Source of the DNA: Actinomycetes bacterium
GTDB lineage: Bacteria; Actinomycetota; Acidimicrobiia; Acidimicrobiales; Bog-793
DNA length: 64,000 nucleotides
Reading direction: 5' to 3'
Assembly (NCBI GenBank): GCA_021809805.1
Contig: JAJZKA010000001.1
Coordinates: 15,246-79,245, forward strand
Position 1 is the first letter of the stretch. The number at the start of each line of letters is the position of its first letter. Below the pieces are notes generated by a model. The model did no database searches and was not told the DNA's origin. It saw only the letters and a program-made list of their open reading frames with translations. The position numbers were made by a program, and so were the translations under genes. Of the stretch, positions 45,790-62,466 are shown piece after piece.

Positions 45790-46695
45790 ATGCATCCTCG
45801 GCGTTGGAAGCTCCGCCCGCGGTTCCTGGCCGCCCTGATGGCAGGGACGGTCGCGCTGGTCGTCGTCCAAGGCGGCGCAGCAGGGGCGTCCAGAGCGCGG
45901 GGGGCGGTCACGGTCTTGTACGCCGGATCACTCCTCGATCTGATGCAGAACCGGATCGGCCCCGCCTTCTTGCGCGCGTCGGGCGACACGCTGAACGGCA
46001 CGGCTGGTGGGTCGAACGAGCTCGCGCATGAGATCGTGGCGGGCACCCAGCGCGCCGACGTCTTCATCAGCGCGTCCCCATCGATCAACGCCGACTTGGA
46101 GGGCCCTCGCGGCGGCAGATTCGTCTCGTGGTATACGACCTTTGCGACCTCGCGGCTATTGCTCGCCTACAACCCGCACAGTCGTTTCGCTCGGGCGCTG
46201 CGCACCGAGCCGTGGTGGAAGGTCGTGACTAAGAAGGGTTTCTTGCTCGGACGCACGGATCCGGCGACCGATCCCAAGGGCAAGCTGGCCCTCGATGCGC
46301 TGAGACAGGCCGCGCGCCAGCACCACGACGCCGCACTTTCGGCCATGGCGCGCTCGACGAGCGGGGTCTTCCCCGAACAGACGCTCGTCGGTCGCCTCCA
46401 GGCCGGCCAGCTCGACGCGGGTTTCTTCTACGCCGTGGAAGCCAAGGCGGCGAAATTGCCGACCATCCCGCTGCTCGGGAGCAATCGCTCGGCGGCCTAC
46501 ACCTTGACCGTGCTCAATCGGGCGCCCGATCCATCGGAGGCTGAGCGTTTTGTCAGCTTCCTGCTCGGCGCGAGCGGTCGAACAATCCTCGCCGAGAATG
46601 GCTTACAGGTCGTGCGCCATCTTCGCGTCGTCGGCACGAGCGCCGCCGTGCCCAACGGGTTGCGGCGCTTGTTGTCGCTCGGCACCCGCGGGTGA
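45790..46695 (+). CDS. Periplasmic solute-binding protein, molybdate/tungstate (ModA/WtpA)-like
   Basis: Signal-like N-terminus. VTVLYAGSLLDLM, GGSNELAHEIVAG..RADVFISASP and TDPATDPKG. Confidence 0.7.
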   Translation: MHPRRWKLRPRFLAALMAGTVALVVVQGGAAGASRARGAVTVLYAGSLLDLMQNRIGPAFLRASGDTLNGTAGGSNELAHEIVAGTQRADVFISASPSINADLEGPRGGRFVSWYTTFATSRLLLAYNPHSRFARALRTEPWWKVVTKKGFLLGRTDPATDPKGKLALDALRQAARQHHDAALSAMARSTSGVFPEQTLVGRLQAGQLDAGFFYAVEAKAAKLPTIPLLGSNRSAAYTLTVLNRAPDPSEAERFVSFLLGASGRTILAENGLQVVRHLRVVGTSAAVPNGLRRLLSLGTRG

Positions 46696-48575
46696 CCGCG
46701 CGGGCACCTTTCGGGGTGCTCGCCGCACTGCTCACCTGCTACCTTGCGGCGCCGCTCGTTGCATTCGCCGTCCGCCTCGCCACCTCGCGCGAGCGCGGCT
46801 TTGGCGTGCCGGGGCTATGGGGAGCGCTGTACATCTCATTTGTCTGCGCGACCATCTCGCTCTTCCTTGTCTGCCTATTCGGCATTCCGCTCGCGTACCT
46901 GCTGGCGCGCCGGCCTGGGCGCGTGGCGCGAGTTGTCGGCGTCGCCGTGCAGCTCCCGCTCGCCCTGCCGCCGCTCATGAGCGGCCTGTTGCTCATCTAC
47001 CTCGTCGGCCCCTACAGCTTTCTCGGCGCGCATCTCGGTGGGCGCCTCACCGACTCGATGGCCGGCGTCGTGCTCGCGCAGAGCTTCGTCGCGGCGCCTT
47101 TCCTCGTGGTTGCGGCGCGCGCAGCCTTCGTCCAGGTGGACCGCTCGCTCCTCGAGGTGGCCGCGACGCTTGGCCACGGCGAGCTCTCGCGCTTTGTTCG
47201 CGTCGCCCTGCCCGCGGCAGCGCCGGGAGTTCGCGCCGGCATGGTGCTGTGCTGGCTGCGCGCCTTTGGCGAGTACGGCGCGACGGTCATCCTCGCCTAC
47301 CACCCCTTCACGCTGCCGATCTATGACTTCAACCAGTTCTCCGCTGCCGGGCTGCCCACCACCCAGGCGCCGGTCGCGCTCGCCCTCGGGAGCGCGCTGG
47401 TCGTGCTCGCGGCGAGCCGCCTTCCACTCGCTCGGCTCTGGAGACACCGGGACACCCGACTTGCCGCCATTGGCGAACCAGCACACCCGAGCGCCGCGCC
47501 TCGAGGCGTCGTCACCGCGGTGCACGCCGTGCCTCCGCCGCCGCTTCGCTTCGCGGTCGCCGCGCACCAGGGCGGGTTCGCACTCGAGGTCGCCCACGAC
47601 GCCACGAGCGGTCGCCTGGCGGTGCTGGGTCCCTCCGGATCGGGCAAGTCGACGCTGCTCCGCGCGCTCGCCGGGCTGCTTGGTCCCGGCGCCGCCGAGG
47701 TCACGCTTGGTCGCGACACACTCGGCGATCGCGCGCCGGAGACGCGAGAGGTTGGCTACGTCGCGCAGAGCTTCGATCTGTTCCCAGGACGCGCTGTTGC
47801 CGGCCAGTTGACCTTCGGGGTGGGTGCCGATGCACAAGCGGCGGCCCGCCTTGTCCACGAGCTCGGCCTCACCGAGCTGTGGGCGCGTCTGCCCAATGAG
47901 CTATCGGGGGGCCAACGCCAGCGCGTGGCGCTCGCCCAGGCGCTGGCGCGGACACCGGCGTTGTTGCTGTTAGACGAGCCCTTTACGGGCCTCGACGCCC
48001 CGGTCCGCCTCGAGGCGCGCCGGGCGTTGCGACGCCTCCAACATGAGCACGGCCTCGCCAGCGTCGTGGTCACCCATGACCCCGAGGACGCCGCCTATCT
48101 CGCCGATGAGGTCATCGTCCTCGCCGAGGGCCGCGCGCTGCAGGCGGGCCCGATCGCCACGGTCTATCGCCATCCGGCATCCTTGGCCGTCGCGCGCCTG
48201 CTCGGGATCCCGAACTTCGCGCGCGCCGTAGTGGTCGAGCCCGGCGTGCTCGCGATCGGCACCGGGCGACTTTTCGCGGACACCGCAGGATTGGCGCGGG
48301 GGAGCACCGTCGCCTGGAGCGTGCGCCCCGAGCACATCGAACTCGTCGCCCGGGGTCCGAACCGTCTGGCCGCGCGGGTTCTTGATCGCACCGAGCTCGG
48401 CGTGCTCGCTGAGGTGACGCTCCTCCTCGAGACCGGGACCGAGCTCGTTGCCCGCCCTTCCGCTTCGCCGGACGTACGCGCCGGCGAAGCGGTCGGGCTC
48501 GAGATCGCGCCCGCGGCAATCTCGTGCTGGCCGGCCGAACCGGACATCAACGACGCCGGCGCCGCGGTGCTCTAG
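46692..48575 (+). CDS. Fused ABC importer permease (ModB/CysW-like) + ATPase (ModC-like) with a TOBE-like C-terminus
   Basis: N-terminal six-TM permease. Then Walker A GPSGSGKST, signature LSGGQRQRVALA, Walker B LLLLDEPFTGLD and a beta-rich tail. Confidence 0.85.
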   Translation: MTARAPFGVLAALLTCYLAAPLVAFAVRLATSRERGFGVPGLWGALYISFVCATISLFLVCLFGIPLAYLLARRPGRVARVVGVAVQLPLALPPLMSGLLLIYLVGPYSFLGAHLGGRLTDSMAGVVLAQSFVAAPFLVVAARAAFVQVDRSLLEVAATLGHGELSRFVRVALPAAAPGVRAGMVLCWLRAFGEYGATVILAYHPFTLPIYDFNQFSAAGLPTTQAPVALALGSALVVLAASRLPLARLWRHRDTRLAAIGEPAHPSAAPRGVVTAVHAVPPPPLRFAVAAHQGGFALEVAHDATSGRLAVLGPSGSGKSTLLRALAGLLGPGAAEVTLGRDTLGDRAPETREVGYVAQSFDLFPGRAVAGQLTFGVGADAQAAARLVHELGLTELWARLPNELSGGQRQRVALAQALARTPALLLLDEPFTGLDAPVRLEARRALRRLQHEHGLASVVVTHDPEDAAYLADEVIVLAEGRALQAGPIATVYRHPASLAVARLLGIPNFARAVVVEPGVLAIGTGRLFADTAGLARGSTVAWSVRPEHIELVARGPNRLAARVLDRTELGVLAEVTLLLETGTELVARPSASPDVRAGEAVGLEIAPAAISCWPAEPDINDAGAAVL

Positions 48576-48839
48576 CACTGCTAGACCGGTTCGATCGAGC
48601 ACGGCTCCTTGCGGTGGCGGCTTCTCTGCGGCCAGTCCCTCCACCCCGCCACTGCCACCCATCGAGCGAGACGAGACATCAACGGAGGTTCACGCAATTG
48701 ACCCGTCCGGTCTGCCCCTTGCCCGTAATTCCCGGATGGAGCGGGAGTGCTTCGGCGTTCCCTCGAGCTTCGCATCCCGCCTTTACCAGCGACGCACGTC
48801 AAGGGCGGGGCCAGGCCATCGAGCACTGAACTGGAACTA

Positions 48840-49431
48840 CACAGCCGGAATAGGCCGGCCCTCCACTGTGCGAGTCCGCTCGCTACGTGCGACTTCGTGT
48901 CGCAACTTCTTCTTGGTGTCCACGCTGATCACCGGCTGACCGCCAGCAACGAGGGCGTCGGGCCGGGAGTTGATGTGGCGGAACTGGGCGTCGCGGTCGC
49001 GATGCTGGCGGCCCTCGTTGACCTTGCGTTGGCCTGGAGCGAATACCCCAGCCGGTGCAACAGTCGCGCACCGAACGAGCCGACACCTCGAAGCCCTGAC
49101 CGACCAGCTCGTCAGCCAGCTTGGTCGACGACTTCGACGTCCAACGCAACTTCGACATCGCGTTGCCCCGAGTCTCGGGGTTCACGAGCTCGTCGAGGGC
49201 CTGCAGGAGTCCGGGCTGCTTCGGCTCGGCTTTGATGTCACCGCCGCCGACGGCGCGCTGGCGGTTCGAGGGCACGATCCCGGCCTTCACCTCCCCCTCG
49301 GCCTTGATCACAGTGTTACGGCTCATCCCCGACGCGGCCGCCACTGCAGTCTTGCCGCCCCGACCCAACATCTCCGCCATCGCACCGGCCACCACCCGCC
49401 GCTGTATCTCGTTCATGTGCGGAACGACCAC
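48840..49431 (-). pseudogene. ISAzo13-family transposase remnant (N-terminal ~200 codons, frameshifted and truncated)
   Basis: Frame 1: MSRNTVIKAEGEV...PGLLQALDELVNPETRGNAMSKLRWTSKSSTKLADELVGQGFEVSARSV. The family-like sequence continues in another frame (LLHRLGYSLQANAKVNEGRQHRDRDAQFRHIN...VISVDTKKK) and then stops at 48840. The DDE catalytic part is absent. Confidence 0.7.
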
Positions 49432-49702
49432 CTCGAAAAATCGCGCGAGTCCCTCGGCGGTGACCTGGCGTGGACCCTTAGCATCACGGCGTCAGGCCCC
49501 TTCTTCTGACCGAGCAGCCGTCCCAGTCGTTCGTCAAACCGGGTCTCCGAGGAGGGACCAGGCGATATAGGCCGATCCGGTGACGAGGCCGCCGGTTCTG
49601 CCGGCCCACCTGCCAGCGCGGACCGTTCGTCGGCTCCTGTCTCGCGAGGGTGATGGGTTCCATACTGCAAGCGTCCCGATTCGGAGTCGGGAAGTTGGTC
49701 GG

Positions 49703-50158
49703 TTATCTGTCTGCAGCCGGCGTGCTCGCGTCGGACGGTTCGTCGGGGCGATGCCCGAAGCGGTGCAGCCTGTGTTGGGGTCGAGGAGACCCGTTGCTGG
49801 TTGCGCGGGCGGACTCCGCTCGGGCGGCGTCGCGCTGGTCGACAAGGTCGTCGCGGTCCCGGCTGACCTCGGCGGTCTCCCGGTGCGATTGCTTGAGCCC
49901 GCGGCGTGCCGCCCGGCCACGCCGGGCCGCGCGGCGGGCACTGGTCAAAAGAAGGCTGAGACCGAAAACGGCGATAGCGCCGACCACTATGCCGTAGAGG
50001 AACAGGGTGCCGGTACTGCCGGTCACGTGGTAGCCGAACACCGAGAAGCCGTGAGTGAGCGCGTGCGTGGCGCCGGTGTTGCCGAGCACGCCGGCCACCG
50101 CGACGATCACTGCAGCGACGAGAAGGATGAGACCGAAAATCAGGATCATGACATGCAC
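49703..50158 (-). CDS. Small 2-TM membrane protein with Arg-rich cytoplasmic tail
   Basis: MILIFGLILLVAAVIVAVAGVL and LFLYGIVVGAIAVFGLSLLL. Lies 18 nt downstream of the STAS gene. TAA stop. Confidence 0.55.
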   Translation of the reverse strand: MHVMILIFGLILLVAAVIVAVAGVLGNTGATHALTHGFSVFGYHVTGSTGTLFLYGIVVGAIAVFGLSLLLTSARRAARRGRAARRGLKQSHRETAEVSRDRDDLVDQRDAARAESARATSNGSPRPQHRLHRFGHRPDEPSDASTPAADR

Positions 50159-50176
50159 TCGGTTAGCATTGTTGAG

Positions 50177-50608
50177 TTACTCTTCATACCTGAGGCCGGG
50201 TAGCTGTCCCCAGCCGAGCTGAAGAATTTTCACGAGCATCGCAGGCGGGCGGCGGACGACGAGTTGGTTATCCGCTCCCCGGTTCGCAGCAGCGGCAGCG
50301 AGCAGTCGGGCCCCGCCGGTGTCGATGAAATCGACGTCCGCGAGATCAAGATGGGCCTCGCCTCGCGAGATGGCCCTGCGGTCCGAGGGGTTCGTCACGG
50401 CCTCCACCACCATCGCGAACAGGTGGTGATTGGCGATGTCGATTTCACCGTGCACGGCTACGGCACCCCGCCGTGTTTCCGTCCACATCTGTGGTGACCG
50501 GAGCGGTGGCCTCGCAGAGTTTGCGGCCGCCCGAACAACTGCGCCAGGGCGCCGACCATCTTGGCACCCAGCACCCCTCGTCGTGACGTGTTCGCCCCCG
50601 GTGCTCAT
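50177..50608 (-). CDS. STAS-domain protein (anti-sigma-factor-antagonist-like)
   Basis: VHGEIDIANHHLF...HLDLADVDFIDTGGARLL. ATG 50608 has a strong SD (AGGAGGA) 6 nt upstream. Confidence 0.65.
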   Translation of the reverse strand: MSTGGEHVTTRGAGCQDGRRPGAVVRAAANSARPPLRSPQMWTETRRGAVAVHGEIDIANHHLFAMVVEAVTNPSDRRAISRGEAHLDLADVDFIDTGGARLLAAAAANRGADNQLVVRRPPAMLVKILQLGWGQLPGLRYEE

Positions 50609-50617
50609 GCCAGTCCT

Positions 50618-50643
50618 CCTGGTGGTGCTGAAACGTCACCAGG
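50618..50643 (-). promoter_or_regulatory. Leader hairpin partly occluding the STAS gene SD
   Basis: cctggtg-N12-caccagg. On the mRNA the 3' arm (CACCAGG) overlaps the SD CCAGGAGGA. Confidence 0.4.
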
Positions 50644-50782
50644 GTCTCGAGCGGCGTAGGTCGACTTAGGCAGTACTGCTCCCTTAGTCTACCTCACCCG
50701 TCGCTCGGGCGCAGGGCCGCCGCGCCCCGGCATGGTCGGCGATGGCGAGCAGCCCTGTGTGGCGTGGCGTTAGGCCAGGGCG

Positions 50783-50809
50783 ACGTCGGCCGAGACGCTC
50801 GGCCGACGT
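50783..50809. other. Perfect 12-bp-stem, 3-nt-loop hairpin in a divergent intergenic region
   Basis: acgtcggccgag-acg-ctcggccgacgt, between the STAS and GAF-ANTAR genes. Confidence 0.6.
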
Positions 50810-51023
50810 GACTGGGCGATGGGGGCCCTCCGACGGTTTCTCGGCGGGACGAGGGCAACCGCACACCGCGGGTGCTGGTCGCCGCCGCGGGGACGGCGAT
50901 CCCAATCGACGGCCCAGTTCCCGTGTCGGGTCGAGGGAGTAGGGTGTTGGTGTCCGGCTGCCGCCGGGGTGCGCTGAATCAGGTCCTCGTTGAGCGTCTC
51001 GCCTTTGGATCAGGAGACGACCG

Positions 51024-51080
51024 ATGACTCAACAGCGCTCGGCGCCAAGCAGACCAGCCAGCCGAGGCAGGTGCCTGTGA
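51024..51080 (+). promoter_or_regulatory. Candidate 18-codon upstream ORF coupled to the GAF-ANTAR gene
   Basis: AGGAG sits 7 nt upstream of ATG 51024 (MTQQRSAPSRPASRGRCL*). Its TGA (51078-80) overlaps the in-frame GTG 51077 of the downstream gene (GTGA). Confidence 0.4.
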
Positions 51081-51793
51081 GCGGCGAGCGGCTGCTTCGG
51101 ATCCTGGCGCTCCTGTCGGCCTCCGGAGAGGGCGGGGATGCGCCACGCGTGTGTCAGGTTGCCGCCCAGGCCATAGGGATGAGCGGCGCGGGAATCATGG
51201 TCTTCGAAGGAGACCTCCCGCGCGGATCGGTGTGCACCACCGACCCGGTGTCCGCCCTCATAGAAGACCTCCAATACACCCTCGGCGAGGGCCCCTGCGT
51301 CGACGCCCACACCCTCGGGGAGCCCGTCTCCGAGGCTGACCTAGCCGCGCCGGCGGTACCTCGCTGGCCGGCCTTCGGGCCACCGGCGGTCACGAAGGGC
51401 GCCCGAGCGGTGTTCGGGTTCCCAGTCCGGATCGGCGCCATACGGATCGGCGCCCTCAACCTTTACCGGGACCGGCCTGGGTCGCTCAGCGGCGACCAGC
51501 ACGCCGACGCCCTTGTCATGGCCGACGTCGCCGCCCGGGCTGTCCTCTCCATCCAAGCCGATGCCCCACCCGGCACCCTTTCCGCCGAGCTCGAAACCGG
51601 CGCCGACTTCCACTTGGTCGTCCACCAAGCCGCTGGAATGGTCTCGGTCCAACTCGACGTCAGCGTGGCCGAAGCGCTCCTGCGGCTCCGAGCCCGGGCC
51701 TTTGCCACCGAGACGCCCCTTACCGAGGTCGCCCAAGACGTCGTCGACCGCCGGTTACGCTTCGCCGACCCCTCCGCCCCCGGCGGTCCGTGA
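51077..51793 (+). CDS. GAF + ANTAR domain RNA-binding regulator (paralogue 1)
   Basis: GAF-like LQYTLGEGPCVDA...FPVRIGAIRIGALNLY. ANTAR-like HQAAGMVSVQLDVSVAEALLRLRARAF. Start is GTG 51077, or TTG 50990 as in the ORF track. Confidence 0.8.
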   Translation: MSGERLLRILALLSASGEGGDAPRVCQVAAQAIGMSGAGIMVFEGDLPRGSVCTTDPVSALIEDLQYTLGEGPCVDAHTLGEPVSEADLAAPAVPRWPAFGPPAVTKGARAVFGFPVRIGAIRIGALNLYRDRPGSLSGDQHADALVMADVAARAVLSIQADAPPGTLSAELETGADFHLVVHQAAGMVSVQLDVSVAEALLRLRARAFATETPLTEVAQDVVDRRLRFADPSAPGGP

Positions 51794-51903
51794 AGCCACG
51801 CGCCGAGCCGTGTGCTCCAATGTAACCTTGAGAGCCCGTTCGCCCCTCCGGCACGCCCAGACCCCGCGCCGCTCGTGAGCCCATCCGACTGGACGATGGC
51901 GTG

Positions 51904-52647
51904 ATGCCCAAACAAGCGGTCCTGGTACGCACTCTCGTTGACCTAGTCGACAGCCTCGTCGCCGACTTCGACATCGTCGACCTGCTCACCCTGCTCTCCG
52001 ACCGCTGCGTCGAAGCCCTCGATGTGGCGGCCGCAGGGGTTATGATCGCCACCCCAGCCGGACACCTCCAAGTCGTCGCGTCCTCGAGTGACGCCATGCG
52101 CACTCTCGAACTGTTCCAGCTGCAATCCGACCAAGGCCCCTGCGTCGACGCCTACCGAAGCGGCAAGCCCGTCGTCAACCAGGACCTCCGCGCCAACCTC
52201 GGGAGGTGGCCGCGCTTCACTCCCCACGCCATCGCCGCCGGGTTCCGCTCCACCCACTCGCTGCCCATGCGCCTACACGGCCAGACCATCGGTGCGCTCA
52301 ACCTGTTTCGCGTCGACAACGGCACCCTCGACCCCGACGACGTGGCCGCCGCTCAAGCCCTCGCCGACGTTGCCACCGTCGCCATTATCCAGAACCGGGC
52401 CACTGCGGATGCCCAAGCACTCAACAACCAGCTCAACCACGCATTAACCAGCAGGGTCATCATCGAACAAGCCAAAGGCAAGATCAGCGAAGCCGCTCAC
52501 CTCGACATGGACCAGGCCTTCCAACGCCTTCGCCACCACGCCCGCAACCACAACCTCCGCCTCACCGACCTCGCCCACGACATCGCCGCCGGCACCGTCA
52601 GACCAGGATCACTCGACCCCCTCCCCTCACCACACCCTCACCGCTAG
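51904..52647 (+). CDS. GAF + ANTAR domain RNA-binding regulator (paralogue 2)
   Basis: LQSDQGPCVDAYRSG...LPMRLHGQTIGALNLF. ANTAR block IIEQAKGKISEAAHLDMDQAFQRLRHHARNHNLRLTDLA. Confidence 0.85.
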   Translation: MPKQAVLVRTLVDLVDSLVADFDIVDLLTLLSDRCVEALDVAAAGVMIATPAGHLQVVASSSDAMRTLELFQLQSDQGPCVDAYRSGKPVVNQDLRANLGRWPRFTPHAIAAGFRSTHSLPMRLHGQTIGALNLFRVDNGTLDPDDVAAAQALADVATVAIIQNRATADAQALNNQLNHALTSRVIIEQAKGKISEAAHLDMDQAFQRLRHHARNHNLRLTDLAHDIAAGTVRPGSLDPLPSPHPHR

Positions 52648-52654
52648 CTAGCGG
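52641..52654. other. 14-bp perfect palindrome formed by two abutting convergent stop codons
   Basis: ccgCTAGCTAGcgg. The TAG of GAF-ANTAR 2 (52645-47) is immediately followed by the reverse TAG of the HTH-TOBE gene (52648-50). Confidence 0.9.
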
Positions 52655-53076
52655 GGGGTCGGAACCTCGACGCCGACGTTGGTGGCCTTGACCACCGCGG
52701 CGGCCACGACACCGGGGGCAAGGCCGAGCTCGTCGACCGCTTCTCGGGTGATCAAAGAGACGAATCGGTGCGGCCCGGCCTGGATCTCCACCTGCGCGGC
52801 GACCGCGTCGGTGGTCACCTTGGTGACGATGCCGACGAAGTGGTTACGGGCCGAGCGCGCCATCGCCCGGGGTGACGCGTCCCCACTCTGACCAGGGCGC
52901 TCCTCGGCGAGCTCGACGGCGAGCCGGGCGAGGTCCTCGCCGTCGATGAGCCGCCTCCCCCCGGGTCCCTGATGCGAGCGGACGCGGGATGCCTCGACCC
53001 ATCGCCGCATGGTGTCGTCGCTCACACCCATCAGCTCGGCGGCGTAGCTGATGCGGTATTCCGGCACGACCGGCAC
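52648..53076 (-). CDS. HTH (MerR/excisionase-type) + TOBE/Mop-domain regulator (ModE-like, molybdate-responsive candidate)
   Basis: EYRISYAAELMGVSDDTMRRWVEA, then SARNHFVGIVTKVTTDAVAAQVEIQAG...VVKATNVGV. GTG 53076 or 53067 is the start. The remainder of ORF 52648..53736 is R/P-rich junk. Confidence 0.75.
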   Translation of the reverse strand: MPVVPEYRISYAAELMGVSDDTMRRWVEASRVRSHQGPGGRRLIDGEDLARLAVELAEERPGQSGDASPRAMARSARNHFVGIVTKVTTDAVAAQVEIQAGPHRFVSLITREAVDELGLAPGVVAAAVVKATNVGVEVPTPR

Positions 53077-54366: not shown

Positions 54367-56124
54367 TCAGCTGCCGAGTGCTGCCTGGGGGTCAACCACC
54401 GCCTGGCTCTCGCCGGCCGGTTCGAGGTCGCGCGCACGCGTCCGGCGCATCCGCGGCAGGGCCACCGAGGCCATTCCGGCGACGACCATGGCGGCGATCG
54501 CGAAGTCGAAGGCCTCGTGCAAGCCGTTGCGGAAGGGACCCGCGATCAGCCGCGGGAAGAAGGAACGGCCGGTCAGGTAGGCGACGTGCGCGGGGGAGAG
54601 ATGTCCGAGCACCCCGGAGGGCCCGAGGAGGCTCTGGATCGGGTTATAGCCGAGGAAGGCGCCAAAGACGGACGCGGTCGGCGGCAATGCCGCAAAAGTC
54701 CGCGCCGCCTTTGCCGGGACGCCCTGGGCGACCAGGCCGCTGTAGAGGCTGTGGGGCAGCGACGAGGCGAGGCCGGTGATGATCAAGGTGAAGAAGATGC
54801 CCATGGACAACACCATCGCCGCGTTCTGCGCGGTCGTCGTCATGCCAGCGCCCTGGCCGCGTTGGGCTGCCGGCAGGCTGTTCATCACGCCCGCCCGGTT
54901 CGGTGAGGCAAAGATGCCCATCGCAAGGCCGTTGACGAACAACAAGAGCGCGAAATCGCCGTAGTGGAAATTGATCGGCAACACTTCGAGGCCGACGAAG
55001 CTCGCGGCGGCGAGCGCCATGCCGCCGGTGGCGAAGGGCCGAGGGCCGAAATGATCCGAGAGGTAACCCGAGATCGGCCCCGCAAGCAGGAACCCACCGG
55101 TCAAGGGCAGCATGTAGATCCCCGCCCACAACGGCGTTCGGGCAAAGCTGTAGCCGTGCTGGGGCAGCCAGATGCCTTGGAGCCAGACCACCAAGATGAA
55201 CATCAAGCCACCTCGTCCGAGCGCGGCGAGCAGGCTGGCGACGTTGCCGAGGGCGAAGGTCCGGTTGCGGAACAGCGAAATCTTGAACATCGGCGCGTCG
55301 ACCTTGGTCTCGATGATGACGAAGGCCACGAGCAACGCGACGCCACCGCAGAGCGCGACGAGGACGCGAGGGCTTGTCCAGCCCATGGTCGAGCCACCGT
55401 AGGGTTCGATGCCATAGACGATGCCGACGAGCACCGCGACCAGGCCAACGGCGAAGGTGACGTTGCCGAGCCAGTCGATCTTCGCCGGCGTGCGCACGCC
55501 GTGATCTTTTAAGTTGATATAGCCCCACACCGTCCCCGCGATCCCGACGGGAACCGAGATCAAAAAGACGAGGCGCCAGTCGACGGGCCCGAGCAGGCCA
55601 CCGAGCACGAGGCCGATGAAGCTGCCGCCGATCGCCGCGATCTGGTTGACGCCGAGCGCGAGGCCGCGCTGATTCGGCGGGAACGCGTCGGTGATAATCG
55701 CCGAAGAGTTCGCGAATAAAAGTGCGCCACCCACGCCTTGGAAGATCCGCATCACGATCATGAAGATCGCCGCTGCCGCGCCGTGCATCCAGGTGATGGA
55801 GAGCAGGATCGAGAAGAAGCTGAAGACAGCGAAGCCGAGGTTGTACATCCGTACCCGGCCGTAGATGTCGCCGAGGCGACCGAAGCTGACCACGAGTACG
55901 GCGGTGACCACCATGTAACCCATCAGCATCCACAAGAAGTAGCTCGTGTTGCCCGGCGCGAGCGGGTTGAGCCGGATGCCCCGGAAGATGTCGGGGAGTG
56001 AGATCAGCACGATCGAGGAGTCGATCGTCACCATCAGCACCCCGAGCGTCGTGTTAGACAAGGTGGACCATTTGCCGCGGTAATGGTCTTGCCCCTCCAC
56101 AAGGACGCTCGCGCGCGGGCTCAT
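54367..56124 (-). CDS. MFS transporter, 14-TM DHA2/EmrB-like
   Basis: Many TM segments. LGDIYGR and the LPxxxGxL pattern are typical of drug:H+ antiporters. Confidence 0.9.
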   Translation of the reverse strand: MSPRASVLVEGQDHYRGKWSTLSNTTLGVLMVTIDSSIVLISLPDIFRGIRLNPLAPGNTSYFLWMLMGYMVVTAVLVVSFGRLGDIYGRVRMYNLGFAVFSFFSILLSITWMHGAAAAIFMIVMRIFQGVGGALLFANSSAIITDAFPPNQRGLALGVNQIAAIGGSFIGLVLGGLLGPVDWRLVFLISVPVGIAGTVWGYINLKDHGVRTPAKIDWLGNVTFAVGLVAVLVGIVYGIEPYGGSTMGWTSPRVLVALCGGVALLVAFVIIETKVDAPMFKISLFRNRTFALGNVASLLAALGRGGLMFILVVWLQGIWLPQHGYSFARTPLWAGIYMLPLTGGFLLAGPISGYLSDHFGPRPFATGGMALAAASFVGLEVLPINFHYGDFALLLFVNGLAMGIFASPNRAGVMNSLPAAQRGQGAGMTTTAQNAAMVLSMGIFFTLIITGLASSLPHSLYSGLVAQGVPAKAARTFAALPPTASVFGAFLGYNPIQSLLGPSGVLGHLSPAHVAYLTGRSFFPRLIAGPFRNGLHEAFDFAIAAMVVAGMASVALPRMRRTRARDLEPAGESQAVVDPQAALGS

Positions 56125-62071: not shown

Positions 62072-62466
62072 TGAGCCAGCGTGGCGCCCTCGCGCCTCGT
62101 TCGCGTCCCGACTATTGGGGCCCGCGGCAAGCCACGTCCACGGTGAGGCGGACACGCGAAGGGCGCCGCGCGCCAGTCGATGATCGCGCCCGGCGAGGTC
62201 GCGATTGAGACCGGGCGCGAATTGATCCCCGACGCGATCCCAACCGGGAGCGAGCCTTGGAGAGGCCACCCTCTCTCTCCTCATCGTCACGATCCTGGAG
62301 CGCGCCAGCCCTGTGGCGCTGATCAAGCCCGCGCCGCTGATCTGTCATCATCGCGCCGAAACCGCCGGGCTCTTCCGGCGCAAGCTGCGAAGGAAAACGG
62401 AATCATTGCCCTCAACCGGTCGAGGATCGACTCTTCGCGCGAGATGTCAAACTCGCATTCGACGGC

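Follow-up and report, generated by a model that had tools for sequence, protein, structure and literature searches.

In actinobacteria, ANTAR domains occur most often in the GAF-ANTAR combination (10.1101/660928), and approximately 1,200 canonical ANTAR targets have been predicted in the phylum, many of them overlapping ribosome-binding sites (PMC8164766). For NasR, the residues that bind RNA have been defined by mutagenesis (PMC7496416), and STAS_2 and SpoIIE are two of the domains that a published survey has recorded in combination with ANTAR (PMC12591593). Here we compare with these systems a locus in which two GAF-ANTAR genes, GA1 and GA2, lie in tandem next to a STAS gene.

Results

The locus is located between modBC and a convergent TOBE/HTH regulator gene. 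Positions are those of the window, i.e. the whole 64,000-nt stretch of DNA that was analysed.

48576-48905, no strand: island DNA with no family assigned, from the modBC stop to the truncated IS remnant end
48906-49478, minus strand: decayed ISAzo13-family insertion sequence (PF07592, NF033519), IS end at ~49478
49479-49708, minus strand: remnant of gene X, the third STAS-operon gene, by nucleotide homology to loci L012 and L019
49703-50158, minus strand: 2-TM small membrane protein with an Arg-rich charged tail, likely start ATG 50149
50177-50608, minus strand: STAS-domain protein (STAS_2), anti-sigma-antagonist-like, with a ~45-aa N-terminal extension
50609-50660, minus strand: conserved 5' leader of the STAS operon, with a predicted hairpin CCUGGUG...CACCAGG overlapping the Shine-Dalgarno (SD) sequence
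50954-51029, plus strand: conserved GA-operon leader RNA (model R1 match 50961-51029)
51024-51080, plus strand: 18-codon uORF (MTQQRSAPSRPASRGRCL), its TGA overlapping the GA1 start codon (GTGA)
51077-51793, plus strand: GA1, GAF and degenerate (pseudo-)ANTAR (GAF_2 29.7 bits, ANTAR 26.1 bits)
51901-52647, plus strand: GA2, canonical GAF-ANTAR one-component regulator (GAF_2 62 bits, ANTAR 57.5 bits)

Positions 48576-52647 are directly supported as a 4.07-kb horizontally acquired insertion. Horizontal acquisition had been proposed in the initial annotation, and the comparison with relatives bears it out, because the related MAG L003 lacks the island in the same gene order and the island core recurs beside mobile-element genes. 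At this otherwise syntenic empty site, the order adh-Gpr1-modA-modBC-TOBEreg-exo-MFS is the one found around the island, the flanking proteins are 78-96% identical to those of the window, and modBC and the regulator gene are separated by only ~30-38 bp, a gap whose sequence can be aligned with both junctions in the window. On the left, homology with this site stops at 48532-48575, and the left junction lies at ~48570-48580 (modBC stop at 48575). At the right end, GA2 and the regulator gene do meet stop-to-stop, as had been described (TAG 52645-52647, CTA 52648-52650). The polarity of the indel is based on this single empty-site genome; the more distant relatives L004-L008 have other mod-locus layouts and give no polarity. 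Copies of the 2.95-kb core (49700-52649), 84-95% identical in nucleotides, occur in at least four unrelated contexts, each copy ending precisely at the GA2 stop on one side and at the 2-TM/X end on the other, with rve_3 transposases, integrases, TA, PIN/RHH and RVT genes as neighbours. Neither a target-site duplication nor terminal inverted repeats turned up at the island. Compared with the near-identical strain L001, amino-acid identity is 94-97% for the products of STAS, the 2-TM gene and the IS fragment, as against 99-100% for the flanking proteins and 98.9-99.6% for GA1 and GA2.

The excess of A/T-ending codons that had been ascribed to the island was found in part of it. Against a GC3 background of 0.863 ± 0.028, STAS (0.70, z -5.7) and the IS fragment (0.73, z -4.6) are clear outliers, and the 2-TM gene lies at 0.80 (z -2.4). 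GA1 (0.82) and GA2 (0.81) are barely under modA (0.83) and modBC (0.84), and the compositional island signal for the GAF-ANTAR genes is weak.

At the left end of the island, the ORFs in 48576-48905 had no match in Pfam or NCBIfam, and the sole signal was a sub-threshold Rfam group-II-intron match (48762-48804, minus strand; 19.4 bits, cut-off 34). The adjacent frameshifted and truncated ISAzo13 transposase, recognised from the outset, was confirmed: the pseudogene (48906-49431, minus strand) has frameshifts near 49069 and 49030 and a deleted 3' half, and matches PF07592 with 40 bits and NF033519 (transpos_ISAzo13) with 101 bits for the first ORF and 171 bits for a stitched three-frame translation. 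The stitched match spans positions 5-178 of 387 across three frames, which implies at least two frameshifts and loss of the C-terminal half. Gene X was cut by the IS after ~codon 75, the truncation point coinciding exactly with the IS end, and its start ATG is mutated to ATA. Nucleotide homology with L012 and L019 begins at 49479, and the X peptide ...SSETRFDERLGRLLGQKKGPDAVM matches gene X of L012, where it encodes a 138-aa small membrane protein, as far as the IS junction.

The minus-strand STAS gene with its strong SD and the 2-TM gene had likewise been called correctly. The SD (AGGAGGA) lies 5-6 nt before the ATG, and the protein matches STAS_2 with 33.4 bits (cut-off 29.2) and TIGR00377 with 27.8 bits, the latter under the cut-off of 53.45. 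The canonical phospho-site is variable (T/V/S/I) and not conserved, dN/dS is 0.38-0.78 (0.72-0.78 in closer comparisons), and the gene is frameshifted in the copies L016 and L019, of which L019 may be an error-prone long-read assembly. STAS in the cassette subfamily is under relaxed constraint, evolving almost neutrally. Its 5' leader is near-invariant in L001, L012, L016, L019 and L020, where the adjoining spacer diverges, and is mostly retained in L015 despite a STAS only 50% identical; the hairpin covering the SD is a predicted fold, and model R1 does not detect this leader. The 2-TM protein belongs to no family in Pfam or NCBIfam, and some source annotations carry a LapA/YciS-like label. 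Its dN/dS is 0.22-0.44 versus L020 and L012. Homologues make up >4,000 clusters in Actinomycetota (60-90% identical), and elsewhere the gene stands near Usp, WhiB and Transgly_assoc genes, with neither STAS nor ANTAR genes around it. The family has no specific tie to ANTAR genes.

Domain searches detected STAS_2, GAF_2 and ANTAR, as had been predicted. The two regulators, described as paralogous GAF-ANTAR proteins, are paralogues (33% identity over 195 aa) and GA2 has a clear ANTAR domain; that of GA1 is degenerate, its score lying slightly under the cut-off of 27.3 bits. Profile matches of GA2 (start GTG 51901 or ATG 51904) include the ANTAR domains of PAL (6HMJ), NasR (4AKK), EutV (6WSH) and Rv1626 (1S8N); GA1 had no sequence match in PDB. 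In GA2, R185, K192, F207, R211 and N218 are invariant among 20 homologues and align with NasR R340, K347, W362, R366 and N373. At the same five NasR-critical positions GA1 has H/A/L/R/E, so that four of the five RNA-binding residues are missing. Across its family (77 close homologues and 132 diverse representatives), K never occurs at the position of the AKG lysine, L mostly replaces the aromatic residue, and G, D or E mostly replaces the Asn. Judged by these residues, GA1 and GA2 are not equivalent, GA2 having a true ANTAR and GA1 a family-wide pseudo-ANTAR, and GA2 is probably the RNA-binding effector of the pair. The RNA-level output once assigned to both regulators is thereby upheld, at the residue level, for GA2 only.

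Purifying selection acts on both genes (dN/dS 0.24-0.28 for GA1, 0-0.27 for GA2). The GA1 family comprises 634 clusters (50% identity) at E ≤ 1e-30, and of the 80 metagenomic loci with enough downstream DNA, essentially every one has GA1 and GA2 in tandem, as do Kitasatospora, Miltoncostaea and Streptomyces records. GA1 most likely starts at GTG 51077, where all relatives have ATG, and not at TTG 50990. Canonical dual-hexaloop targets, not seen in the island by eye, were also missing in our scan: no dual A1/G4 hexaloop motif was found on either strand of 48400-52800, and the whole 64-kb window held 24 as against 33.5 ± 6.8 in shuffles, i.e. no enrichment.

The GA operon is preceded by a previously undescribed, probably translation-blocking leader of ~70 nt. 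It has three elements: a hairpin at the upstream end (CCGGC-UGCC-GCCGG), then the conserved core AAUCAGGUCCUCGUUG, then a long hairpin with the SD (AGGAG) and the uORF AUG in its 3' strand. The leader is 100% identical in six cassette copies, whose spacers otherwise diverge. Model R1 scores 69.9 bits (E 6e-16) at this sole copy in the window and matches 41 loci, one copy each, invariably just upstream of GA1; no Rfam family matches the leader. Its 5-bp helix is 90.9% paired, with a CG<->UA exchange in two columns, and the pairing/covariation score was reached in 0 of 500 shuffles. Cognate strands paired better than non-cognate ones both for the GUCC strand with the start-codon strand (p<0.0002 for 28 sequences, p=0.006 for 19 representatives) and for the anti-SD with the SD (p=0.009 and p=0.02, respectively); control strand pairs were not significant. 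In per-sequence MFE folds, the SD and start codon were within the hairpin in all folded sequences except one. These comparisons show a sequestering helix over the SD and start codon. Single-sequence folding energies in this GC-rich DNA were no better than those of shuffles (z -2.1 to +0.7), and CUGCUG/CAGCAG repeats make the register ambiguous, helices slid by ±3 pairing nearly as well. A proposed alternative 'ON' helix was unsupported by covariation (p=0.14 and 0.21).

In 23 of 28 leaders the sequestered start codon opens a reading frame of 16-20 codons that closes with TGA or TAG, and in 21 of those 23 this stop lies between -4 and +4 nt relative to the GA1 start; the geometry is conserved, the peptide is not. 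An in-frame stop precedes GA1 in 23/28 leaders, so the leader does not extend GA1 at its N terminus. Together with the truncated gene at 49479-49708, the conserved leaders and the GA1 ANTAR degeneracy, the uORF is an addition to the first reading of this DNA.

A co-directional STAS gene lies directly upstream of GA1 in 20 of 67 loci, its end 1-21 nt away from the GA1 start (83 nt in one locus), and all eight such genes tested exceeded the Pfam thresholds. The leader (29 loci, in which the 1.5 kb upstream contain no STAS gene) and the co-directional STAS are mutually exclusive, and 18/67 loci have neither. In other loci the pair adjoins RsbW-like kinases, SpoIIE phosphatases or sigma factors. 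STAS is divergent from the GA genes in the cassette and in L104, where it adjoins a MEDS-HATPase_c_2 kinase; in L067 and L077, GA2 and a SpoIIE phosphatase form a single fusion; and plasmid pLRE541 carries STAS-ANTAR-GAF/ANTAR with a second STAS, an RsbW-like ATPase and a SpoIIE phosphatase. No kinase or phosphatase gene lies within the island. A link of STAS to the GA pair is thus supported by a neighbourhood conserved across three actinobacterial classes.

Discussion

We think it reasonably probable that the locus is a mobile cassette with a partner-switch-linked GA1/GA2 pair, whose RNA-level output is gated, and perhaps autoregulated, at its own leader. An ISAzo13 copy, now dead, would have landed in and truncated the last gene of an operon of STAS, 2-TM protein and X, leaving a STAS operon divergent from a leader-uORF-GA1-GA2 operon, with the GA1-GA2 pair as the presumed selected core. 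GA1 would be an obligate paralogue of GA2 that has kept an ANTAR-like fold and lost the RNA-contact residues, and is therefore most likely a partner or modulator of GA2, e.g. in a heterodimer, rather than an independent RNA binder. By default, the long hairpin of the ~70-nt leader would bury the SD and start codon of the uORF, and GA1 would be translated only through stop/start coupling to it. If a trans-factor binds the leader, the highly conserved and mostly single-stranded core AUC-RGUCCYYGYUG is the likeliest place for it. GA2, alone or together with GA1, would be the most economical choice of factor, and this would amount to autoregulation. STAS would tie the pair to partner-switching signalling. 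A GA1-GA2 complex, contacts between STAS and the GA proteins, autoregulation and ligand sensing by the GAF domains are inferred parts of this reading. Counting against it are the missing dual hexaloops of the leader, the unsupported 'ON' helix, the unremarkable folding energies and ambiguous register, a STAS that is nearly neutral and has no conserved phospho-site, the lack of a kinase or phosphatase in the island, and the loci with a leader but no STAS or with neither.

GA1 and GA2 could instead be two independent conventional antiterminators, each with its own GAF ligand and canonical dual-hexaloop targets elsewhere, the STAS gene, membrane genes and leader being unconnected neighbours or ordinary 5' UTRs. 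The prevalence of the GAF-ANTAR architecture and the many targets predicted in the phylum speak for this, as do the 18 loci with neither STAS gene nor leader, and the target scan spanned 64 kb of the genome only. We nevertheless consider it unlikely, given that the GA1 family lacks the lysine, aromatic and Asn essential for RNA binding by NasR, that the tandem is strict, that in three classes STAS, SpoIIE and RsbW-like genes repeatedly turn up adjacent or fused, and that the canonical motif is absent from the island and not enriched in the window. Quite unlikely, too, is that the leader acts in cis as a sensor independent of the encoded proteins, as a metabolite or ion riboswitch or as a uORF-stalling attenuator of GA1-GA2 translation. 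Its layout is riboswitch-like (upstream hairpin, highly conserved core, SD/start-sequestering expression platform), a uORF of fixed length is present, and with no Rfam match it would be an orphan motif. However, the conserved core is short (~16-25 nt), aptamer-like multi-helix covariation was not found, and the non-conserved uORF peptide argues against peptide-specific stalling. Moreover, in L032, L034 and L035 the core 15-mer lies inside the 3' coding end of the co-directional STAS, at the same distance from GA1, which suggests descent from an operon junction and not from a free-standing aptamer.

That the cassette is ancestral at the site and was deleted in the L003 lineage, with the IS fragment an unrelated later arrival, strikes us as highly improbable. 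A single empty-site genome, the non-polarising layouts of L004-L008, the GC3 of GA1 and GA2 near that of modA and modBC, and the lack of a target-site duplication and inverted repeats would agree with it. It is disfavoured by the same exact cassette bounds next to mobile-element genes at four or more unrelated places, by the strong compositional deviation of STAS and the IS fragment, by the L003 gap aligning to both junctions, and by the lower identity to L001 of the STAS, 2-TM and IS products than of the flanks.

Set beside the described ANTAR systems, the cassette read as a gated GA1/GA2 pair differs at the RNA, the leader being without the dual hexaloops that define known ANTAR targets, and resembles them in GA2, whose putative RNA-binding residues align with those of NasR.

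An empty site and recurring copies mark the island as a mobile cassette

The window is actinobacterial DNA with a G+C content of 69.5%, and the same locus is found on the near-identical contig L001 and on a metagenome-assembled fragment at NCBI (L002, GCA_027411945.1). Domain calls at the locus agreed with the gene inventory of the initial annotation, including its stop-to-stop right end, where the GA2 stop codon lies directly against that of the HTH+TOBE/Mop regulator (52647/52648).

Features of the island and its borders
45790-46695: modA
46692-48575: modBC, a fused gene
minus strand: ISAzo13 transposase fragment
49703-50158, minus strand: 2-TM protein
50177-50608, minus strand: STAS protein
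50609-50660, minus strand: block A, the STAS 5' leader, with a hairpin CCUGGUG/CACCAGG overlapping the SD
~50953-51030, plus strand: block B, the GA1 leader, preceding an 18-codon ORF
51077-51793, plus strand: GA1, GAF-ANTAR paralogue
51901-52647, plus strand: GA2, GAF-ANTAR paralogue
52648-53076, minus strand: HTH+TOBE/Mop regulator

A search with modBC against one genome per species led to the MAG L003 ('Actinomycetes bacterium HSP2.bin26'), which is collinear with the window over adh, Gpr1, modA, modBC, the TOBE regulator, a 5'-3' exonuclease and an MFS gene, with proteins 78-96% identical. In L003, modBC and the regulator converge across a spacer of only ~30-38 bp, without the island, and this short spacer aligns to both window junctions, placing the breakpoints a few nt from 48575 and 52648. 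The exact breakpoint is ambiguous owing to CTAG-containing strings at both junctions; apart from these, we saw no clear target-site duplication and no inverted or direct repeats at the island borders. Nor were there signs of tRNA/att-type integration, with no tRNA in the 64-kb window and no integrase in the island.

At the nucleotide level, the window shares with other contigs a cassette core of 2.95 kb (49700-52649), whose ends coincide exactly with the 2-TM and GA2 stops. The core is 88.6% identical to copies on contigs L020, L021 and L022; for the copy on L016, identity is ~95% in the GA genes and 77-89% in the 2-TM/STAS part. In both L020 and L021, an rve_3 transposase lies at the 2-TM side of the cassette and an ECF-type sigma factor, SLFN_AlbA_2 and a reverse transcriptase lie on the opposite side, while the outer flanks are DivIVA/UPF0182 in L020 and ADH/TetR in L021. 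The copy on L019 neighbours two integrases, PIN/RHH genes and Peptidase_M78/DUF4411. The same contig holds a second GA1/GA2-like pair 6 kb from the intact cassette (L019:15188-16697, minus strand), which is more divergent, apparently fragmented and adjoins rve_3 fragments. None of the four cassette proteins matched PADLOC defence models at E<=0.01. A scan for sigma-70 promoters and intrinsic terminators gave nothing above shuffle expectation.

With an empty site between conserved flanks in L003 and a cassette that recurs elsewhere, the horizontal acquisition proposed in the initial annotation stands: window 48576-52647 is an insertion of a mobile cassette beside the mod genes. An ancestral locus that was deleted in L003 would leave the same empty site, and the more distant relatives L004-L008, having other mod-locus layouts, do not polarise the event; in view of the recurrent cassette, we consider such a deletion very improbable.

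The initial annotation had also seen A/T-ending codons as more frequent in the island than in the flanking genes. Against a background GC3 of 0.863 +/- 0.028 (23 genes), this was true of the STAS gene (0.70, z -5.7) and the IS fragment (0.73, z -4.6), both strong outliers, with the 2-TM gene at 0.80. It was not true of GA1 (0.82, z -1.6) and GA2 (0.81, z -1.8), which are marginal and close to modA (0.83) and modBC (0.84). Codon usage therefore backs a foreign origin for part of the island only, and the real evidence for that origin is the empty site together with the recurrent cassette. Compared with L001, the window has flanking proteins that are 99.4-100% identical, GA1 98.9% and GA2 99.6%, as compared to 94.4% for STAS, 96.7% for the IS fragment and 97.4% for the 2-TM protein; the left half of the island is thus diverging faster than its surroundings. 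Further downstream, an MFS transporter gene that is intact in the window and L002 is split in L001 by an IS1595-family transposase (DDE_Tnp_IS1595; L001:12477-15360, corresponding to window 54367-56124), pointing to ongoing IS activity in this population.

Some smaller observations concern the two borders. At its 3' end, modBC is ~12 codons longer than the L003 orthologue (AEPDINDAGAAVL, window 48533-48575); the extra codons cross DNA that is intergenic in L003 and end at the island junction, a side effect of the insertion. The 330 bp past the modBC stop (48576-48905) have no recognisable coding content. A sub-threshold Rfam match to group II intron D1-D4 lies here on the minus strand (48762-48804; 19.4 bits against a cut-off of 34, E 0.58), which may be compared with the reverse-transcriptase gene near the cassette in L020. 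At the right border, the regulator (52648-53076, minus strand) joins an excisionase/MerR-type HTH (HTH_17) to a domain of the molybdate-binding Mop/TOBE type (TIGR00638, 55.6 bits); it resembles ModE in arrangement, with a non-canonical architecture.

The IS remnant is a dead copy that disrupted a third gene

The first ORF of the IS fragment covers the N-terminus of the family model only (PF07592 positions 1-49; NF033519 positions 2-133 of 387). Transposase homology continues across three frames of the minus strand (49431 to ~49069; 49069 to ~49028; 49031 to 48906) and stops at the '...GQPVISVDTKKK' motif. A peptide stitched from the three frames scored 171 bits over model positions 5-178/387, below the NCBIfam cut-off of 200. 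The gene has thus suffered at least two frameshifts and lost its C-terminal half. The N-terminal 178 residues fit the ISAzo13 family, but unlike members of that family the remnant ends ~210 residues short of the C-terminus, with most of the DDE domain missing. There are no convincing inverted or direct repeats at 48576-49480, and one IS end is deleted. The remnant is a dead copy and in its present state cannot have moved the cassette.

The cassette copies in L012 and L019 share 220 bp more beyond the 2-TM gene, encoding a 138-aa small membrane protein, X, whose gene overlaps the 2-TM stop. In the window, the X start codon is mutated from ATG to ATA and the frame is recognisable up to '...GRLLGQKKGPDAVM', after which comes the IS end at ~49479. 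The IS thus landed in the last gene of a three-gene STAS-2TM-X operon and destroyed it.

GA1 and GA2 form a fixed pair of degenerate and competent ANTAR proteins

The initial annotation had described two GAF+ANTAR proteins. Pfam confirmed this for GA2, whose ANTAR domain (PF03861) scored 57.5 bits against a gathering cut-off of 27.3; for GA1 the GAF domain was confirmed, while its ANTAR domain, at 26.1 bits, fell just below the cut-off. GAF_2 exceeded its cut-off of 28.6 in both proteins (29.7 bits in GA1, 62 bits in GA2), the nearest solved GAF domain by profile being 5W10 (E 6e-4), and the two proteins are homologous to each other (33% identity over 195 aa, E 1e-21 to 1e-25). Their GAF domains share a conserved signature of G-P-C and RWP-F, the Cys being present in 75 of 132 GA1 representatives. 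A 46-nt direct repeat between the two genes (51283-51328 and 52128-52173, 76% identity) encodes this part of the GAF domain, GEGPCVDA in GA1 and DQGPCVDA in GA2, with the conserved Cys.

A profile built from 20 GA2 homologues matched the ANTAR domains of PAL (6HMJ), NasR (4AKK), EutV (6WSH) and Rv1626 (1S8N), and PAL and NasR were the best solved-structure sequence matches of GA2 (E 1e-7 to 2e-7); no PDB sequence match was obtained for GA1. Alanine scanning of NasR has identified R340, K347, W362, R366 and N373 as needed for RNA binding (PMC7496416). With the register set by alignment to 4AKK (chain offset +27), these five positions correspond to R185, K192, F207, R211 and N218 of GA2, all invariant in the 20 homologues. 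GA1 reads H/A/L/R/E at the same positions and thus lacks four of the five RNA-binding residues. The consensus of 77 close GA1 homologues is H/A/L/R/D, and the pattern extends to the 132 representatives (50%-identity clusters), where Lys never occupies the K position (T/A/S instead), Leu stands at the aromatic position in 98, G/D/E at the Asn position in 104, and Arg at the R340 position in only 65. At E<=1e-30 the GA1-type family comprises 634 clusters (50% identity). Judged by these residues, the label 'GAF and ANTAR domain-containing protein' would seem to cover two functionally different paralogues.

Both genes are under purifying selection, as indicated by dN/dS values of 0.24-0.28 for GA1 and 0-0.27 for GA2. 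Among 80 metagenomic loci retrieved with GA1 (58-72% identity), GA2 follows GA1 in essentially every contig that is long enough. The selected core of the cassette is this pair of a pseudo-ANTAR and an ANTAR protein, and a joint function would be the best explanation for such a fixed tandem of competent and degenerate domains.

A structured leader and a coupled uORF precede GA1

When the STAS-GA1 spacer was aligned over six cassette copies, two invariant blocks stood out, the rest being indel-rich. Block A is kept even in L015, a locus where STAS is only 50% identical, and showed no covariation. The element in block B is also visible in much more distant loci. By eye the STAS leader resembles the GA leader motif (GACCCUGGUGA and GUCCUCGUUGA), but that the two are one motif was rejected as unproven, since a covariance model of the GA1 leader (R1) did not recognise the STAS leader at E<=10.

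R1 was built from 24 sequences. It scored the window copy at 69.9 bits (E 6e-16), the sole copy in the 64 kb, and matched 37 loci once each, in every case immediately upstream of GA1. Further matches were obtained in L013, L014, L022 and L103, with marginal ones at the right place in L104 and L105, while the leader was absent from empty-site loci and from the Streptomyces, Kitasatospora and Miltoncostaea loci. Elsewhere in the 64-kb window, matches to the leader or to its 16-nt core were at chance level (6 against 3.6 expected). The best extra R1 match, at 62114-62185 on the plus strand (13 bits, E 0.11), has no obvious related gene downstream and is probably due to chance.

The leader consists of a variable upstream hairpin, a conserved core AUC-RGUCCYYGYUG (AAUCAGGUCC in the window), and a long imperfect hairpin whose 5' strand starts in the core and whose 3' strand holds the SD and start codon. 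This architecture was seen in every individually folded sequence except one (MFE). RNAalifold gave a helix of 4-5 bp with two columns exchanging CG and UA; 90.9% of its cells are paired, and the observed pairing or covariation score was reached in 0/500 shuffles. In an alignment-free test, cognate strands paired better than non-cognate ones, both for GUCC with the start-codon strand (p<0.0002 for 28 sequences, p=0.006 for 19 representatives) and for the anti-SD with the SD (p=0.009 and p=0.02, respectively), and control strand pairs were not significant. Taken together, pairing, covariation and the cognate-strand tests indicate that the helix is selected for, with a register that slips by 3-4 nt between subgroups, such that helices slid by +/-3 pair almost as well. 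In this GC-rich DNA, single-sequence folding energies did not beat shuffles. A model of the full 12-bp hairpin (R2) was too narrow and recovered only its own subgroup plus L036. An alternative 'ON' helix between an upstream GGUGCGC strand and the anti-SD strand looked plausible by eye; it showed no covariation (p=0.14 and 0.21) and is speculation only.

The uORF starts at an ATG (51024) preceded by AGGAG, and its TGA overlaps the GA1 start, as GTGA in the window and ATGA in relatives. Its length is 16-20 codons in 23 of 28 leaders, in 21 of which the stop lies at -4 to +4 nt relative to the start of GA1; the peptide sequence is not conserved. We also considered whether the leader is an N-terminal extension of GA1 (starting at TTG 50990), which in-frame stops in 23/28 homologues ruled out. 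Translation of GA1-GA2 must therefore pass a structured leader and a coupled uORF, both of them predicted.

The 67 loci whose sequence reaches 200 nt or more ahead of GA1 were sorted by what precedes the gene. The leader, without a STAS gene within 1.5 kb upstream, was found in 29/67, a co-directional STAS gene whose end lies 1-21 nt (83 nt in one) before GA1 begins in 20/67, and neither in 18/67; leader and co-directional STAS gene never co-occurred. In three loci, the 15-nt leader core (ATCCGGTCCCYGTCG) lies within the 3' coding part of the co-directional STAS gene (L032:638-652, L034:954-968, L035:2615-2629), ~108 nt before the GA1 start as in leader-type loci. It may be speculated from this that the leader-uORF descends from a STAS-GA1 junction.

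The GA pair recurs with partner-switching genes

The STAS assignment of the initial annotation held for STAS_2 (33.4 bits, cut-off 29.2) and did not hold for PF01740 (20.5 bits, cut-off 22.6); TIGR00377 was likewise below its cut-off (27.8 bits, 53.45). All eight co-directional STAS genes tested pass the Pfam STAS thresholds (8/8). The phospho-Ser/Thr position after the 'D' of F-x-D-S/T-x-G is not conserved, being T in the window, V/S/I in close homologues, and A or G in the co-directional genes. The STAS dN/dS is 0.72-0.78 in closer comparisons, the gene is apparently frameshifted in L016 and L019, and no RsbW-type kinase, PP2C phosphatase or sigma factor is present in the island. Taken together, this suggests that STAS may be dispensable or decaying here.

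Homologous loci do contain such parts, namely L017, L104 and pLRE541, with sigma factors in Miltoncostaea and L020. STAS is divergent from GA1 in the cassette subfamily of the window and in L104, an Acidimicrobiaceae MAG, where it adjoins a MEDS-HATPase_c_2 (RsbW-like) kinase. Kitasatospora has the order sigma factor / HATPase_c_2 / GAF-ANTAR / ANTAR / STAS, and a megaplasmid of Miltoncostaea (Thermoleophilia) the order GA-GA-STAS-sigma-70. The 23.8-kb linear Streptomyces plasmid pLRE541 carries STAS-ANTAR-GAF/ANTAR plus a second STAS, an ATP-binding protein and a SpoIIE phosphatase. Cultured strains with the triad are Kitasatospora sp. CMC57, Miltoncostaea oceani SCSIO 61214 and, through pLRE541, Streptomyces sp. 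LRE541. In two loci (L067:4072-6114 and L077:4313-6286, approximate coordinates), GA2 is even fused to a C-terminal SpoIIE/PP2C domain (134 bits; 657-680 aa). The GA pair is thus recurrently associated with partner-switching parts of the STAS type. In a recent review's survey of Pfam architectures, STAS_2 and SpoIIE are among the domains combined with ANTAR (PMC12591593). Our literature search found no paper with both 'ANTAR domain' and 'STAS domain', the figure legend of that survey being the only mention of STAS_2 and SpoIIE beside ANTAR.

The 2-TM protein belongs to a family of >4,000 clusters and had no Pfam or NCBIfam match at E<=0.01, LapA/YciS (DUF1049) included; only the source annotations of some homologues use the LapA/YciS name. 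We discarded the idea that the 2-TM protein is a specific partner of GA1 and GA2, because its homologues lie in unrelated stress-gene neighbourhoods without STAS or ANTAR.

Discussion

The initial reading of the island, as an acquired sensing module with output at the RNA level, was essentially right, and the finding is real. The individual parts (IS remnant, STAS, GAF-ANTAR) are from known families. Three features appear not to have been described before: the fixed pair of a competent and a degenerate ANTAR domain, the systematic tie of this pair to STAS, SpoIIE and RsbW-like genes, and the conserved leader-uORF.

A canonical ANTAR target consists of two stem-loops (>=3 bp) with A1/G4 hexaloops and a linker of 2-25 nt (PMC8164766). 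The initial annotation had spotted no such target in the island, and a direct scan of 48400-52800 on both strands bore this out; over the whole window, the motif was not enriched (24 against 33.5 +/- 6.8 expected). Translation is the main level at which actinobacterial ANTAR proteins act, by way of RNAs overlapping the RBS or start codon, as ~37% of actinobacterial targets do (PMC8164766). The GA leader resembles canonical targets in preceding an ANTAR operon, in its two successive hairpins and in its occluded SD and start codon. It differs in that its loops are of 4 nt and at least 13 nt rather than hexaloops, that its conserved element is a 16-nt strand plus loop sequence, and that it has an additional coupled uORF. 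By analogy, the leader would therefore work like an actinobacterial ANTAR target, by predicted SD/AUG occlusion, while failing the structural definition of one.

In the mechanism that we propose, GA1 and GA2 would form a complex, with RNA contacts made by GA2 alone. Their GAF domains would sense a signal, STAS may modulate the GA1/GA2 pair, and GA2 could bind the leader core and thereby regulate its own synthesis. Tentatively, STAS, GA1 and GA2 may constitute a new branch of actinobacterial partner switching with an RNA-binding protein, in place of a sigma factor, as output. Here GA2 would read a non-canonical target, a single long hairpin that sequesters the SD/AUG and carries the AUC-RGUCCYYGYUG element; in leader-type loci, autoregulation by this element would operate through the coupled uORF; and the module would be mobile among Acidimicrobiia-like soil actinobacteria.

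Two other explanations were weighed against the proposed mechanism. GA1 and GA2 could be independent canonical antiterminators; with GA1 degenerate at the RNA-binding positions, the pair fixed in tandem, and no dual hexaloops in the island, we find this unlikely. Alternatively, the leader could be a riboswitch or attenuator that works independently of any protein. A selected helix that pairs with the SD and start codon would fit such a device, and it would be an orphan motif: at gathering level Rfam matched nothing in the window, and at E<=10 there was nothing relevant in 48500-52800. With a short conserved core and a uORF peptide that varies, we hold this explanation to be quite improbable. 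The mechanism proposed above is the most likely one.

GAF-ANTAR is the most abundant ANTAR architecture of actinobacteria, yet uncharacterised as to ligand, target and partner (10.1101/660928; PMC8164766). The results turn this gap into testable statements, namely a fixed pair, a tie to partner switching, and a leader of ~70 nt as first RNA, and the locus would provide this large class with a concrete first RNA and first partners. If true, the proposal would link partner-switching signalling to post-transcriptional control and widen the RNA specificity of ANTAR domains.

Among characterised proteins, NasR (NIT-ANTAR) and PAL (PAS-ANTAR-LOV, Nakamurella) share with GA2 an ANTAR domain of three helices that follows a sensor domain and a linker helix. 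In GA2, however, the sensor is a GAF domain, a degenerate paralogue is always encoded ahead of it, linkage or fusion to STAS and SpoIIE is frequent, and there is no adjoining canonical two-hexaloop target. The two-component regulators EutV (6WSH), AmiR and PdtaR/Rv1626 (1S8N) have the ANTAR output domain in common with GA2, but the GA system has neither a receiver domain nor a cognate histidine kinase, and control would come from GAF, STAS and GA1 instead of receiver phosphorylation. The STAS protein itself is shared with the RsbV/RsbW/RsbU and SpoIIAA/AB/E modules, to which the homologous loci add HATPase_c_2 kinases, SpoIIE/PP2C phosphatases and sigma-70-family factors. The island differs from these modules in being without kinase, phosphatase and sigma factor and in its variable phospho-Ser/Thr position, and its conserved partners are of the ANTAR type, so that the output would be RNA binding rather than the release of a sigma factor.
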